A DNA stretch of 64,000 nucleotides. Source: Anaeromyxobacteraceae bacterium. GTDB taxonomy: Bacteria; Myxococcota; Myxococcia; Myxococcales; Anaeromyxobacteraceae. Both the position numbers and the translations under genes were made by a program. Where the stretch lies: assembly GCA_047602405.1 (NCBI GenBank), contig JASGHJ010000001.1, positions 2,208,001-2,272,000 on the forward strand. Direction: 5' to 3'. Each line of letters starts with the position of its first letter. The stretch's first letter is position 1. Shown piece by piece: positions 3,005-43,097 of the stretch. The notes under the pieces are model-generated. The model worked only from the letters and a program-made list of their open reading frames with translations, was not told the origin of the DNA and ran no database searches.

Positions 3005-3077
3005 GGGCCCATAGCTCAACGGTCAGAGCGGTCGGCTCATAACCGATTCGATCCAGGTTCGAATCCTGGTGGGCCCA
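3005..3077 (+). tRNA. ileX: tRNA with CAT anticodon, most likely tRNA-Ile2 (lysidine-modified)
   Basis: Acceptor GGGCCCA/TGGGCCC, D arm AGCTCAACGGTCAGAGC, anticodon arm GTCGG-CTCATAA-CCGAT, T loop GGTTCGAATCC, discriminator A, CCA not encoded. The paired 1:72 position and location after rpoD favour Ile2 over fMet. Confidence 0.9.
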
Positions 3078-3081
3078 CTGT

Positions 3082-3152
3082 GTTTCCGGGAGCGCTCGGC
3101 GCGCCCCCGCCCCGCGGAGCGGAGCTCCTCGGGGCCCCACCCCTGGCAGCAG
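3082..3152 (-). repeat. ~70-bp double-hairpin REP-like element (intergenic copy)
   Basis: Reverse complement CTGCTGCCAGGGGTGGGGCCCCGA..CGGGGCGGGGG..CGCCGAGC..CCCGGAAAC aligns with 30201-30270. Confidence 0.8.
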
Positions 3153-13342: not shown

Positions 13343-14233
13343 CTAGACGGGCGGGGCGCAGGCGGCGCCGAGCACGGCGCCCATGGCCCAGGTGCCGGGC
13401 GGGAACACGACGTTCCACATGCCCTTGCGGAACAGCTCGAAGGCCTTGCGGTACGCGTCCTGGAACGCCTTCAGCTGCTGCTGCGCCTCGATCCGCTTCC
13501 ACCGGTCGGACGCCGCGATCTTCGGGTTGAGCTTGCTCGGCGGTTCCTTCCCGGCCGGATGCTGCCACCACTGCTGCCGGAGCACCCGCCGCAGCCCCGC
13601 GAACTTGCGCCGCTCGCCGTCCTCGGTGCGCGCCGCCTGCTTCTCGAGCGCCGCGAGCGCGCCCTTCACCGACTCGCGGTACCGCTCCGCCGAGAAGCCC
13701 TTCGGCGGCACGAGCGCGAGCACGGCGCGGTCGGGCATGTTCCCGTCCTTCGAGAAGAACATCTCCGGCCGCTCGTACTCGCGGCCCGTGCCGAGCTCCT
13801 CGAGCGAGGACCAGAGCCCGGGCCAGTGGCTGCCGTGCTCGACGAGGCCGGCCGCGACCGGGTTCGCGAGCGTGTAGGCCGCCTTCGCGATGACGGAGCC
13901 CTCGTCCTCGAGCGAGACCGCGCTGTAGCTCCCGGGGGCCCAGGCCGACTCGAAGCGTTCGTGGAGGGTGTTGAGGAAGAGCGCGAGGTTCATGTTCAGC
14001 TCCTGGGCGAAGCGCGGGAGCTGAGCGAAGGGGTCGGAGAGGATCAGGTGGTAGTGGTTGGAGACGACGCACCAGGCGTGAAGCTCGATCTTGTGGCGCC
14101 GGGCGGCGACGGCGAGGAGGTAGCCGAAGGCGTTGTTGAGCCGCACGGACGGCACCATGAGGAAGAGCCGGTGCAGGCAGCGGCGGGTGAACAGGTAGGT
14201 CTTGCCCGGGAGGATCTGGCGGGGAGCGGTCAT
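13343..14233 (-). mobile_element. REP-associated tyrosine transposase (RAYT-like, HUH/Y1 family) with C-terminal extension
   Basis: YLFTRRC N-terminal motif, HUH SNHYHLIL, catalytic Tyr in AYTLANPVAAGLV, WPGLWSS. No tnpB partner adjacent. Confidence 0.85.
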
Positions 14234-28945: not shown

Positions 28946-29943
28946 GGGTGCTCGCCATCGAGACCTCCTGCGACGAGACGGCCGCCGCCGTCGTCGAGGA
29001 CGGCGCGCGCGTGCGCTCCGACGTCGTCTCGACGCAGATCGACGTCCACCGCCGCTGGGGCGGGGTCGTGCCCGAGCTCGCGAGCCGCAACCACGTCGTC
29101 CAGGTGATGCCGGTCGTCGACGAGGCGCTCGCGCGCGCGGGCGTCGACCCGTCCGGCCTCGACGGCGTCGCGGTCACGAGCGGCCCGGGCCTCGTGGGGG
29201 CGCTCCTCGTCGGCGTGCAGGCGGCGAAGGCGCTCGCGCTCGCGTGGGGGAAGCCGCTCGTCGGCGTGAACCACCTCGAGGGCCACCTCGTCGCGGCGTT
29301 CCTCTCCGAGCGGCCGCCCGCGTTCCCGTACCTCGGGCTCGTGGTCTCGGGCGGCCACACCTCGCTCTACGAGGCGCGCGGGTGGGGCGACTACCGCGTG
29401 CTCGGGCAGACCCGCGACGACGCCGCGGGCGAGGCGTTCGACAAGGGCGCGAAGCTGCTCGGCCTGCCGTACCCGGGCGGCGTCGCCATCGACCGGCTCG
29501 CGAAGGACGGCGACAGGGACGCCGTGAGGTTCCCGAAGGCCGTCGTGAAGGGCGCCGACCTCGACTTCAGCTTCTCGGGGCTCAAGACCGCGCTCCTCCA
29601 CCACGTGAAGAAGCACGGCGTGCCCGGGGGCCAGGCGCTCGCCGATCTGTGCGCGAGCTACCAGGAGGCCATCGTCCGGGCGCTCGTCGAGAAGGCGGTC
29701 AAGGCCGCGCGCCGGCTGCAGCACGGCCGGCTCGTGCTCGCGGGCGGCGTCGCCGCGAACTCGCGGCTGCGCGCCGCCGCCGCGGAGCGCGCGGCGGACT
29801 ACGAGGGCATGGAGCTCTTCCTGCCCGAGGTCCGCCTCTGCACCGACAACGCCGCGATGATCGCCGTCGCCGGCACGCACGCGCTCGAGCGCGGGCTGCG
29901 CGCCGGCGCGACGCTCGCGGCCGACCCGGGCTGGCGCCTGTGA
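28942..29943 (+). CDS. tsaD: tRNA t6A37 threonylcarbamoyltransferase
   Basis: VLAIETSCDET, GGVVPELASRNH, NHLEGH, VSGGHT, DDAAGEAFDK, FSFSGLKT, TDNAAMIA. Confidence 0.97.
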   Translation: MRVLAIETSCDETAAAVVEDGARVRSDVVSTQIDVHRRWGGVVPELASRNHVVQVMPVVDEALARAGVDPSGLDGVAVTSGPGLVGALLVGVQAAKALALAWGKPLVGVNHLEGHLVAAFLSERPPAFPYLGLVVSGGHTSLYEARGWGDYRVLGQTRDDAAGEAFDKGAKLLGLPYPGGVAIDRLAKDGDRDAVRFPKAVVKGADLDFSFSGLKTALLHHVKKHGVPGGQALADLCASYQEAIVRALVEKAVKAARRLQHGRLVLAGGVAANSRLRAAAAERAADYEGMELFLPEVRLCTDNAAMIAVAGTHALERGLRAGATLAADPGWRL

Positions 29944-30857
29944 CCTCGACCTCGTACCCCTCGCCGCGCGCGCTCCTCGAGAAGCACGGCCTGCGCGCGA
30001 AGAAGAGCTGGGGCCAGAACTTCCTCGCCGACCCCGAGGTGCTCGACGCCATCGCCGACCTCGCGGCGCCGCCCCCGGGTGCGCCCGTCGTCGAGCTCGG
30101 CGCGGGGCTCGGCCACCTCACGGTGCGCCTCGCCGGGCGCGGCGCGCGGGTGACCGCGGTCGAGCGCGACCGGGACATGGCGCTCGTGCTCCGGGAGGAG
30201 CTGCTGCCGGGGTGGGGCCCCGATCCGGCTTCGCCGGTCGGGGCGGGGGGCGCCGAGCCCCCCGCGAAACGAGGCCGCATCGAGCTCGTGGAGGCCGACG
30301 CGGTGCGGGTGGACTGGGCCGCGGTCGCCGATCGCCTCGGCGTCACGCGGCTGCACGTGGCAGGGAACCTCCCGTACCACCTCTCGAGCCCGATCCTCTT
30401 CGCGCTCCTCGACCACGCCGACCGGATCGCCCAGGCGGTGTTCCTGCTGCAGCGCGAGGTCGCCGAGCGGCTCGCCGCCGAGCCGGGCACGAAGGACTTC
30501 GGGCTCCTCTCGGTGCTGCTCCAGCGCGAGGCCGACGTGCGCGTCGCGCGGCGGGTGCCGGCCGGGGCGTTCCTGCCGCCCCCGAAGGTCGAGAGCGCCG
30601 TCCTCGAGGCGCGCTTCCGGCCGCCGCCCGGCGGGCCCCTCGACACCGCGCTCTTCCGCAAGCTCGTGAAGGCCGGCTTCGCCCAGCGCCGGAAGACCCT
30701 CTCGAACGCGCTCGACGCGGCGCGCCTCGCGCCGCCGAAGGCGGTGGAGGCGGCGCTCGCGCAGGCCGCGATCGATCCCCGCCGCCGCGGCGAGACGCTC
30801 GAGGTCGCGGAGTGGGAGGCCCTCTGCCGCGCGCTCGCGCCGCGGCTCGCCGGGTAG
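29940..30857 (+). CDS. rsmA: 16S rRNA dimethyladenosine transferase (KsgA) with an in-frame palindromic insertion
   Basis: KKSWGQNFL, VELGAGLG, NLPY, QREVAER, FLPPPKVES, FAQRRKTL. Confidence 0.95.
   Translation: MTSTSYPSPRALLEKHGLRAKKSWGQNFLADPEVLDAIADLAAPPPGAPVVELGAGLGHLTVRLAGRGARVTAVERDRDMALVLREELLPGWGPDPASPVGAGGAEPPAKRGRIELVEADAVRVDWAAVADRLGVTRLHVAGNLPYHLSSPILFALLDHADRIAQAVFLLQREVAERLAAEPGTKDFGLLSVLLQREADVRVARRVPAGAFLPPPKVESAVLEARFRPPPGGPLDTALFRKLVKAGFAQRRKTLSNALDAARLAPPKAVEAALAQAAIDPRRRGETLEVAEWEALCRALAPRLAG
30201..30270 (+). repeat. ~70-bp double-hairpin REP-like element inserted in frame in rsmA
   Basis: Aligns with the reverse complement of 3082-3152; encodes LLPGWGPDPASPVGAGGAEPPAK. 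Confidence 0.8.
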
Positions 30858-41349: not shown

Positions 41350-43047
41350 CTACTTCTTCTCGAGCTTCGCCTTCAGGAGGTCCCCGAGCGTCCCGAAGCC
41401 CTTGCCGGACTGCTTCGGCGCGGTCTTCTTCAGGTACTCGGCCGCCTCGGCGCGCTCGGCGGCGTCCTCGGCGCCCGACTTCGAGAGCCGGATGCGGTGC
41501 TGCTCGTCGATCGCGAGGACGAGCACCTTGAAGGTGTCGCCCGGCTTGAACGAGCGGCGGAGGTCGGCGCCGCGCGGCGTGCCGGTCTCGCTCGCGGGCA
41601 CGAGGCCGCGGCCGCCGGCGAAGCGCACGAAGACGCCGAAGCTCTCGATCTTGTCGACGCTCGCCTCGACCACGTCGCCGACCTTCGGCGGCGGGGGTGG
41701 GGCGGGGCGCTCCGGGCGCGGCGGCGCATCGGGCACCGGCGCGGGCTCGGGCCTCGGCTGCAGCGCCTTCACCGACAGCGCGATGCGCTCGCCCTTATGC
41801 CCCCGGCGTCCTGAGGTGCCCGGCACCGAAGCCGGGGGCTTCGGGTCCTCGTCGATGCGCAGCACCTGCACGGAGACCGTGTCGCCGGCCTTCAGGAGGT
41901 CGCCCGGCTTCGACGTGCGGTCCCAGGCGAGCTCGGAGACGTGCACGAGCCCCTCGACGCCGCCGAGGTCCACGAACGCGCCGTAGTCCTGCACGCTCGT
42001 GACGGTGCCCTCGAAGATCGCGCCCGGCGCGAGCTTCTCGCGGGTGGCCTGCGCCTTCTGGGCCCGCTCCTCCTCGAGGAGCGCGCGGCGCGAGAGGACG
42101 GCGTCGCGGCCGTCGGCGCGCTGCACCTTGAACTGGAGCTTCTGGCCGACGAAGACCGACGGGTCGGCGACGAAGCGCACGTCCACCTGGGAGATCGGGC
42201 AGAACGCCCGCTCGCCGTGGACCTCGACCTCGAGGCCGCCCTTGTTCACGGCCTTCACGATCCCCTCGACCGGCAGGCCGGTCTGGGCCGCCTCGACGAG
42301 CGCCTCGCGGGCGTGGTCGCGCGGGGTCTTCGCGTGCCCGCGGGAGACGAGCACGCCGCGGTCGGTCGCCTGGATGACGACGCCGTCCACGATGTCGCCC
42401 TCGCGGAGCGTGACGTTGCCCTCGTCGTCCTTCAGCTCGGCGACGTCGATCATGCCCTCGGCGACGCCCGAGCCGAGCTCGAGGAACGCCACGTCGTGGC
42501 CGAGCTGGATGATCTTCCCCGCGACCTTCTCGCCGACGGCGAAGCGGCGGCGCGGGGCGGCCGCGGCGCCGGAGGCGGCGAGCATGTCCGCGAAGGAGCC
42601 CTCGTCGGGCGCCTCGACCTCGGGCGCCGGGGGCGGCGCGCCCTTCGGCGTGGGCGGGGCCTTCGGCTCGGCTCCCTCGACTCCGGGGCCGCTGTCGCGG
42701 CCCCTACGCTCGGGATGGGCGGAGGAGCGACCCTCGCGACCGCCGCGATCACCGCGGCCACCGGGCGGACCGCCGCGGCCGGGAGGACCGCCCCGGCCAC
42801 CGGGGCCACCGGGCCCGCGGCCGCGCGGGCCGGGCCTGCCGCCGCCACCGGGCGCGCCGGCCTTGTCGGCGACGCGCTGCCAGAGGGGCCGATCGTCCTT
42901 CTCCACCGCGGTGGACGCGGCGCGAGGCGCGGGCGCGAGGACCTCTTCCTGCGGCGCCTCGATCGGCGCGCCGGGCGGGGGCGGCCGGAGGTGGACCTTG
43001 CGAACCACGACCGGGCCCGACTCCTTCTTCTGCTTCTCGTCGGACAT
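41350..43047 (-). CDS. Multi-S1-domain RNA-binding protein (RpsA-like) with Gly/Arg/Pro-rich N-terminus
   Basis: Four S1-like repeats (e.g. YGAFVDLGGVEGLVHVSEL, FGVFV), C-terminal FGTLGDLL. Confidence 0.88.
   Translation of the reverse strand: MSDEKQKKESGPVVVRKVHLRPPPPGAPIEAPQEEVLAPAPRAASTAVEKDDRPLWQRVADKAGAPGGGGRPGPRGRGPGGPGGRGGPPGRGGPPGGRGDRGGREGRSSAHPERRGRDSGPGVEGAEPKAPPTPKGAPPPAPEVEAPDEGSFADMLAASGAAAAPRRRFAVGEKVAGKIIQLGHDVAFLELGSGVAEGMIDVAELKDDEGNVTLREGDIVDGVVIQATDRGVLVSRGHAKTPRDHAREALVEAAQTGLPVEGIVKAVNKGGLEVEVHGERAFCPISQVDVRFVADPSVFVGQKLQFKVQRADGRDAVLSRRALLEEERAQKAQATREKLAPGAIFEGTVTSVQDYGAFVDLGGVEGLVHVSELAWDRTSKPGDLLKAGDTVSVQVLRIDEDPKPPASVPGTSGRRGHKGERIALSVKALQPRPEPAPVPDAPPRPERPAPPPPPKVGDVVEASVDKIESFGVFVRFAGGRGLVPASETGTPRGADLRRSFKPGDTFKVLVLAIDEQHRIRLSKSGAEDAAERAEAAEYLKKTAPKQSGKGFGTLGDLLKAKLEKK
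41797..41838. repeat. 42-bp palindromic element inserted in frame in an S1 domain
   Basis: GCCCCCGGC...GCCGGGGGC stem with inner GGTGCC-C-GGCACC; encodes PPASVPGTSGRRGH between two AAG codons; atypical codons. Confidence 0.65.
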
Positions 43048-43097
43048 GACCGGCGACCTCATAGCACAACGCCCGGCGGGGGCGTAAAACAGCCGGC

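Follow-up and report, generated by a model that had tools for sequence, protein, structure and literature searches.

A double-hairpin repeat lies in frame within rsmA of an Anaeromyxobacteraceae bacterium and recurs in many copies across its genome

Palindromic repeats that sit in frame inside bacterial genes are already known, and the phenomenon itself will not surprise a specialist. Rickettsia palindromic elements (RPEs), as summarised in the available text of PMC10969869 and PMC2229807 from Ogata 2000 and 2002, are ~150 bp long with 12-bp terminal inverted repeats, encode a conserved peptide and fall within ORFs in nearly half of cases. The GTAG/CGTC REPs are described in the main text of Di Nocera 2013 (PMC3733652) as short hairpins near 3′ ends that are enriched in convergent gaps and supply stop codons; a minority lie in ORFs, where they code for 20–30 residues, often in DNA-repair or RNA-modifying genes. 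A further arrangement, set out in the text available for Chenal 2025 (PMC11893778), is that of the Ssn nucleases, whose single-domain GIY-YIG gene is bracketed by NTS/SRM hairpins. PMC3733652 leaves unsettled by what means RPE- and CGTC-type repeats spread, and in PMC11893778 Ssn is raised as a hypothesis only.

We analysed a 64,000-nucleotide stretch of DNA (the window) from a genome of ~6 Mb and 74% GC (G000), belonging to a free-living host and ~89% coding by hexamer-script gene calls, together with its nearest relative (G010, ~93% identical). The window contains a repeat that works like RPEs and intragenic REPs and that is, by the features tested (for RPEs by description), outside the RPE, GTAG/CGTC REP, MITE, SRM and TIRtron groups. 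It lies in the 305-aa ORF at 29940–30857 (+), which is RsmA (KsgA) by TIGR00755 (223 bits against a cut-off of 171). This is the sole match in the genome; it stays open across the repeat, and its ELGAGLG motif, E75 and NLPY are intact. The preliminary description had placed at 30201–30270 an in-frame addition of about 22 codons between LREEL and GRIEL. Region, frame and the net 22 codons are as claimed; the limits are not, since the insert junctions fall at 30203–30274 (+), residues ~89–111, and the span from LREEL to GRIEL is 23 residues where relatives read LREEL-GDRIEL. There, 72 bases stand in place of 6 ancestral bases, and the net gain is therefore 66 nt, or 22 codons. Alignment of RsmA orthologues, which had been proposed as a check, identifies the segment as an insertion present in only 1 of 30 rsmA loci (G000 included) and missing from the other 29. 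G010, 93% identical in rsmA, has an empty allele reading EELGDRI, and the same empty allele occurs in contigs of runs X1, X2 and X3 from a related metagenome lineage, where 30202 is joined to 30275 through 6 bases that take the place of 72 in the window.

Mapping onto KsgA structures, also proposed at the outset, shows the insert as a gap against solved KsgA chains; in an AF2 model (mean 88.8) it is placed between helix 78–88 and strand 114–117, with pLDDT ~50 at residues 91–110 and 86–91 in the flanking blocks. The insert is predicted to form a disordered surface loop of 22 residues, which on this model is likely tolerated and near-neutral; presumably it is translated and the enlarged enzyme is active. 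Over ~60 bases the DNA of the rsmA copy matches without a difference one that lies between genes in G010 (L054), and there is therefore no protein-level tuning of the insert. In relatives (L003, L004, L021, L023, L024, L030) RsmA also has Thr/Pro/Ser repeats expanded to widely differing lengths in another loop, near residue 134; in L023 the segment SLSPRAAGGEG resembles another palindromic repeat read in frame.

An iterated nhmmer search of G000 (E<0.01, with the reversed genome as control) recovered 92 copies, the best reversed match having an E of 0.53. A further 16 composite copies lie beyond the nhmmer model (18 found, 2 overlapping; reversed control 0). The unit is ~70 (about 69) bases, and its ends share at most CTG...CAG. 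Its layout comprises an optional leader, GCTGCC or GATCC, an unpaired GGGG-W-GGGG arm, two hairpins and an A-rich tail. In rsmA the arm occupies 30209–30217 (+), external to both hairpins, and in 72/75 parsed copies of the family the base at its centre varies together with the one that opens hairpin 2 (T going with C, A with A). Hairpin 1, at 30218–30243 (+), has a CCCC/GGGG base, a variable covarying upper stem and a 3-base loop; it is an optional module and is missing from most composite copies. Hairpin 2, at 30244–30264 (+), has a GCCGA loop that in other copies is a slot for CTAC or for a whole hairpin of a second family. The tail, at 30265–30274 (+), ends in GAGG here and in NCAG in 61/92 copies; it is this side that, in intergenic copies, points towards the stops of genes and the ends of tRNAs. 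Copies are often arranged in tandem, have often lost hairpin 1 between direct repeats and have often swapped modules.

The stems covary. An end-to-end alignment of 30201–30270 with the reverse complement of 3082–3152 was reported in the preliminary description and is confirmed (BLAST 79% over 72 columns, E 8e-8), as are the shared blocks, the two differing inner stems, the GCCGA loop and the GAAAC end. The compensatory stem change read from that pair is weak on two copies alone (folding z-scores −0.9 to −2.8) and is borne out by covariation across many. In an alignment of 20 copies, pairing is seen in 95% of cells (85% when shuffled, 45–53% in slid controls), and 9/19 stem pairs change on both sides, equalled by 0/500 shuffles, counts that relatedness among copies can inflate. 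A perfect stem of at least 4 pairs is formed by 50/54 distinct inner sequences from G000 (shuffled 10) and by 81/115 from other genomes (shuffled 20), and one stem pair is usually a purine-purine mismatch. Single-copy folding energy is unconvincing alone, and the difference in DNA folding between strands is small. On the C-rich strand the hairpin-1 loops of most copies are purine triloops, which are unusually stable in DNA.

The sibling at 3082–3152 (−) is intergenic and starts 4 bases past a tRNA gene with a CAT anticodon (3005–3078, +) downstream of rpoD (435–2927). ARAGORN calls this gene tRNA-Met(CAT); given its position after rpoD, as in the rpoD-ileX neighbourhood, we take tRNA-Ile2 to be a plausible identity. 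G010 has a different variant at this site, with compensatory changes in hairpin 2. A terminator-like match at 3056–3075 was rejected, being an arm of the tRNA, and a short GC hairpin at 2937–2961, between the rpoD stop and the tRNA gene, is probably a terminator.

By a strict pattern the repeat is present in 27/37 genomes of the genus, 23/42 of the family, 0/125 of the largest sister family and 3 others among 301; within the genus, copy number per genome runs from 0 to dozens. A GTDB scan returned at least 120 loci in Anaeromyxobacteraceae, Polyangiales, Acidobacteriota and others, whose stems are particular to each lineage within one shared framework, a few of these matches resembling chance G-rich repeats. 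This distribution makes an Anaeromyxobacter-like myxobacterium the most likely host. The viral contigs scanned held no repeat matches, and an Rfam scan of six copy-bearing loci returned tRNAs and sub-threshold miRNA matches only and no family for the repeat. No description of the family was found in the literature covered, outside which most subscription journals lie; the sole paper to match the core 13-mer concerns, in its available text, Staphylococcus CRISPR loci.

The genome-wide count of intergenic and in-frame copies that had been called for places only 8 of the 92 inside genes, in a genome that is largely coding: the hexamer script assigned 14 to genes, and 6 without coding signal on both sides were dropped. 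The hosts are RsmA, an RqcH-like protein (RqcH/NFACT), Fpg, an aldo/keto reductase (AKR), a beta-lactamase-fold hydrolase, a Ser/Thr kinase, a molybdopterin oxidoreductase and an AddAB-type helicase-nuclease. Four copies lie on the gene strand and four opposite, in several frames, and because both strands are used the encoded peptides differ; depending on the reading frame, the repeat is open in 61–77 of 82 copies. Comparison with G010 covered 1.24 Mb (overlaps included) of the ~6 Mb and gave counterparts for 61/83 repeat sites. Six of these 61 have continuous coding alleles and all six keep frame; with the AKR site added, 7/7 copies with an empty coding allele are frame-preserving (chance ~1 in 2000), and no frame-breaking copy was seen among the coding sites compared with G010. 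The net changes are +22, +22, +23, +21, +14, +23 and +3 residues. At the AddAB-type gene (L037 in G010; G000:C2:2726528) each genome has its own in-frame variant, and one of the two seems to have gone into what was left of the other; another in-frame copy, L144, is private to G010. Measured against G010, host dN/dS is 0.17 for rsmA and 0.14–0.23 for six other hosts, the AddAB-type gene (partial) standing at 0.34; these values, which pool time before and after insertion, are ordinary and near the background (median 0.12, IQR 0.09–0.195, n=79). Elsewhere, convergent gaps hold 27/82 copies compared with 423/2873 of all gaps, the CAG end lies at the stop of the facing gene in 35/92 copies and the other end in 13, and three copies are directly 3′ of tRNA genes. 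When 87 alleles were compared in the other genome, 62 were classed as empty and 11 as carrying the repeat. Taken together, the 92 copies, the empty orthologous sites, the covarying stems and the eight in-frame copies support the earlier proposal of a structure-conserved mobile palindrome that can be read within conserved proteins of this lineage.

The footprint of insertion was examined at 42 filled/empty sites. At most 2 bases are replaced at 4/42 (2 of these being aligner overshoots), with a median of 14, and simulated clean insertions score ≤2 replaced bases in 48/49 coding cases and 37/62 after stops; the replacement signal is partly divergence, G010 being ~93% identical, and ~6 of the 42 ‘empty’ alleles contain other repeats by eye. 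Within genes the replaced bases number 4, 6, 7, 29 and 66, the AKR and kinase sites being also readable as clean insertions plus neighbouring substitutions. One site (L035) is a clean CT|AG insertion, and one of the 42 (C2:1947281) has a possible 4-base duplication. Empty junctions read CTAG in 9/51 and TCAG in 7/51 (tally), with a CTAG background of 0.17 per kb. A CT|AG target preference is only suggested by this, because CTAG and TCAG are both stop-codon contexts, with 482/1073 CTAG at predicted stops, and the junction is anchored on AG; most in-gene empty alleles, that of rsmA included, are without CTAG. Carry-over of donor flank at the 5′ end was not above shuffles (3.55 vs 3.32 ± 0.19). 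At many sites G000 and G010 differ in the variant or module present, which points to exchange in place.

The second family (type C hairpins) gave 255 regex matches in G000 and 1 in the control. Six tandem type C copies lie upstream, and inverted copies downstream, of a gene for a 102-residue Ssn-like GIY-YIG protein (G000:C1:1892788–1893114, L103) that matches Pfam PF01541 and has no NCBIfam match at 1e-12. Homologues with the same kind of flanks occur in 16/77 family genomes (loci L216–L232); at these 17 loci type C is found by regex in 10 and related hairpins by eye in the other 7. We had entertained the pairing of GIY-YIG gene and type C as undescribed and rejected this, the layout being covered in the available text of PMC11893778. 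In the 18 composites of G000 type C is nested in hairpin 2 of the repeat, and the same sites swap between repeat and type C kinds in G000 versus G010. The double-hairpin repeat itself occurs within 1.5 kb of the nuclease gene at 0/17 loci, and the SRM pattern matches 0/92 repeat copies, 23/255 type C and 0/1000 random sequences. By tally, the repeat is present in 13/13 genus genomes with the nuclease subtype and 10/17 without, related genomes not being independent; G018 (100% complete, 46 pattern matches) is without the subtype. Of the 255 type C regex matches, 27 fall in coding frames that stay open and show coding signal to either side (G000 alone; at least one apparent chance match). A further copy, at 42674–42715 (−) in the window, is in frame within an S1-domain protein (41350–43062, −), in its low-complexity N-terminal region. 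Three composites are apparently in frame in genes as well (G000 C1:2033902, C2:420401, C2:3532006).

Searches for the Y1_Tnp, DUF559 and GIY-YIG families found no mover gene adjoining the repeat in G000 or in the sets of five repeat-rich relatives. The closest repeat copy to any of the six Y1-type genes of G000 is at least 10.7 kb away, none of 17 Y1 loci in the five relatives has a repeat within 1.5 kb, and no DUF559 gene is present in these six genomes. An all-against-all comparison of 447 neighbour proteins showed no recurring nuclease or transposase, and Pfam scans of 24/51 G000 and 59/132 foreign neighbours yielded no mover candidate. With tblastn, the GIY-YIG and Y1 proteins gave one match among 196 repeat loci, to a GIY-YIG of another subtype ~0.8 kb off (L286). 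No half-elements around an ORF were recognised, right-end and leader patterns performing no better than the reversed control. The window does contain a Y1/RAYT-like transposase gene (13343–14233, −), with near-identical copies and shared flanks at C2:2523911 and C2:3257163 and a weak, sub-cut-off match to NF047646.

Compared with the described systems, the likeness to RPEs is, by analogy, one of behaviour and not of membership, and the RPE descriptions set the repeat apart. Both are palindromic, both are intergenic as well as in frame in unrelated conserved genes, and no mover is assigned in either. However, at ~70 bases the repeat is about half as long as stated for RPEs; it lacks a terminal inverted repeat like theirs, its copies encode unlike peptides, 8/92 of them are internal to genes as opposed to nearly half, and it inhabits a 6-Mb, 74% GC genome and not a reduced intracellular one. 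Like the GTAG/CGTC REPs it is mostly intergenic near 3′ ends, enriched in convergent gaps and a source of stop codons, and its in-gene hosts include Fpg, AddAB, RsmA and the RqcH-like protein. Unlike them it consists of two stacked hairpins and an unpaired G arm, and the tags occur in only 1–7/92 copies per tag and end; nor is there a RAYT gene flanked by the repeat, as in REPtrons, at 0/6 Y1 loci in G000 and 0/17 in the five relatives. The text of PMC3733652, apart from Figure 1 and the supplements, has no match for Anaeromyxobacter or Myxococc-. MITEs of the Correia/ERIC/RUP type have terminal inverted repeats and target-site duplication, whereas here bases are replaced at most sites, with the one possible duplication in 42. 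The GGGGWSAS motif of TIRtron/TIRYT is found in 2/92 copies, and copies are not near Y1 genes. Type C does share the Ssn/SRM layout, bracketing a ~100-residue single-domain GIY-YIG gene, and nests in the repeat, but the repeat itself lacks the SRM pattern and flanks none of the 17 GIY-YIG loci. Finally, BoxC/TMECO, in the text available for Holder 2015 (PMC4666352), resembles the repeat in its conserved G-rich arms, mirror-like third arm and strain-variable occupancy; it differs in sequence and layout and in the DUF559 gene missing from G000 and the five relatives, and a triplex here would be putative, being read from the arm correlation.

Thus 30203–30274 is one of the 92 double-hairpin copies. 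It probably arrived in rsmA, keeping the frame, once the lineage had separated from its nearest relative; the predicted disordered 22-residue surface loop is likely tolerated, and the repeat is likely selfish DNA that depends for its movement on an enzyme with a gene elsewhere. That enzyme, a small nuclease or a strand transferase, would recognise the folded single strand and cut the target, preferably near CT|AG, and the break would be patched with a repeat copy. We propose that such patching would result in the swapping of a few to tens of target bases, the lack of duplication and the exchange of modules between copies. Action in trans is favoured because no mover gene lies beside the repeat and because the repeat is absent near nuclease and Y1 loci. 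For the cut-and-patch mechanism as a whole, with a trans-acting single-strand nuclease or transferase, we regard the case as evenly balanced. On the host side, selection would purge copies that shift frame or strike protein cores, and in-frame loop copies would survive as near-neutral Pro/Gly-rich peptides, as we propose because the repeat is GC-rich and mostly stop-free; this part of the account is very likely. By contrast, it is extremely unlikely that the copy in rsmA arose in assembly, or that it kills the gene and awaits purging. Such a reading would fit a gene that is usually dispensable, an exact protein known only from this assembly (a cluster of one) and a filled allele bridged by none of the sequencing runs compared, in which at most 0.15 of window words were present (RNA runs matched small shares of the stretch only). 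It does not fit the frame-preserving record of all seven coding insertions, the in-frame copies that G010 has of its own (L037, L144), or the intact motifs and ordinary constraint of the remaining gene.

As to what moves the repeat, the Ssn-like GIY-YIG protein at G000:C1:1892788–1893114 is a doubtful though conceivable candidate. It would nick type C single strands, the repeat riding along by capturing type C hairpins, and the composites, the site swapping between kinds in G000 and G010, the type C flanks of the gene and its homologues and the suggestive co-occurrence all argue for it. However, no repeat lies close to the 17 loci, the SRM pattern is missing from all copies, G018 is an exception among genomes that are not independent, and what SsnA has been shown to do (PMC11893778) is to cut DNA, with no demonstration that it moves it. 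Movement by a RAYT/TnpA-REP-type HUH enzyme, which would cut and rejoin single strands at CT, two target cuts giving the replacement footprint, is unlikely. According to the text available for PMC8266576, TnpA-REP cleaves at CT beside REP hairpins, and CT|AG junctions, six Y1-type genes and a REP-like distribution over convergent gaps are all present in G000, but the GTAG tag is at the ends of only 4–5/92 copies and the Y1 genes lie far from the copies there as in the relatives. Less probable again is spread without a dedicated enzyme, in which a non-B structure of the G-rich strand (a G-quadruplex, or an intrastrand triplex with the hairpin) would stall replication, and template switching or gene conversion would spread the copies. 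Four G-runs occur in 84/92 copies, with hairpin 1 as a long loop, and conservation extends to the unpaired left arm, whose central base follows hairpin 2 as a third strand might, a third-strand T being set opposite C-G. The common tandem arrays, hairpin-1 deletions and module swaps point the same way, and triplex repeats are tied to local instability in E. coli (PMC4666352, available text). Against this are new copies at unrelated sites without flanking homology and one end polarised to stops and tRNA ends; moreover, the arm correlation is also explained by subfamily descent or by alternative pairing with the 3′ arm of hairpin 2. Lastly, the host may keep the repeat as an RNA element that stabilises or processes transcript 3′ ends, with the in-frame copies accidental. 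The CAG-end bias towards facing stops, the three copies directly after tRNA genes and the copies flanking highly conserved genes would suit this, but turnover is fast (62/87 alleles empty, 11 filled), copy number varies across the genus down to none and Rfam has no match, making it very unlikely as the main explanation. A secondary RNA effect beside movement by a trans-acting enzyme is possible.

Three things appear to be new to the literature: the repeat family, the replacement footprint and the way the repeat nests with Ssn-linked hairpins. The footprint, with replacement, no regular duplication and one polarised end, fits neither MITEs nor classical REPs, and in the composites the repeat is joined, within one piece of DNA, to the kind of hairpin that surrounds an Ssn-like nuclease gene. 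A close genome pair with dozens of filled/empty sites offers a testable system and defined substrates for the question of movement. It is also a case in which likely selfish DNA adds predicted loops to the products of core genes, here in a genome that is large and GC-rich. More speculatively, and with little confidence on our part, the nested hairpins of Anaeromyxobacteraceae, Polyangiales and Acidobacteriota might form one cross-phylum family with an undescribed cut-and-replace mode at CT|AG-like sites. Driven by Ssn-like GIY-YIG nucleases or another single-strand enzyme, this would leave no target duplication and swap modules in place, and with the partner family it would have written ~35 peptide loops into one free-living bacterium.

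Some copies stand in close contact with the ends of neighbouring genes. In a tRNA cluster at G000:C2:261077–261970 (L066) copies lie directly after tRNA-Arg and tRNA-His, and another abuts the 5′ end of tRNA-Trp (C2:1611954). Moreover, tails ending in GGAG/AGGAG-like sequence lie a few bases ahead of a start codon at L048 and L054 in G010 and at C1:2283924 and C2:3679750 in G000, and there the repeat may provide a ribosome-binding site or overlie one.
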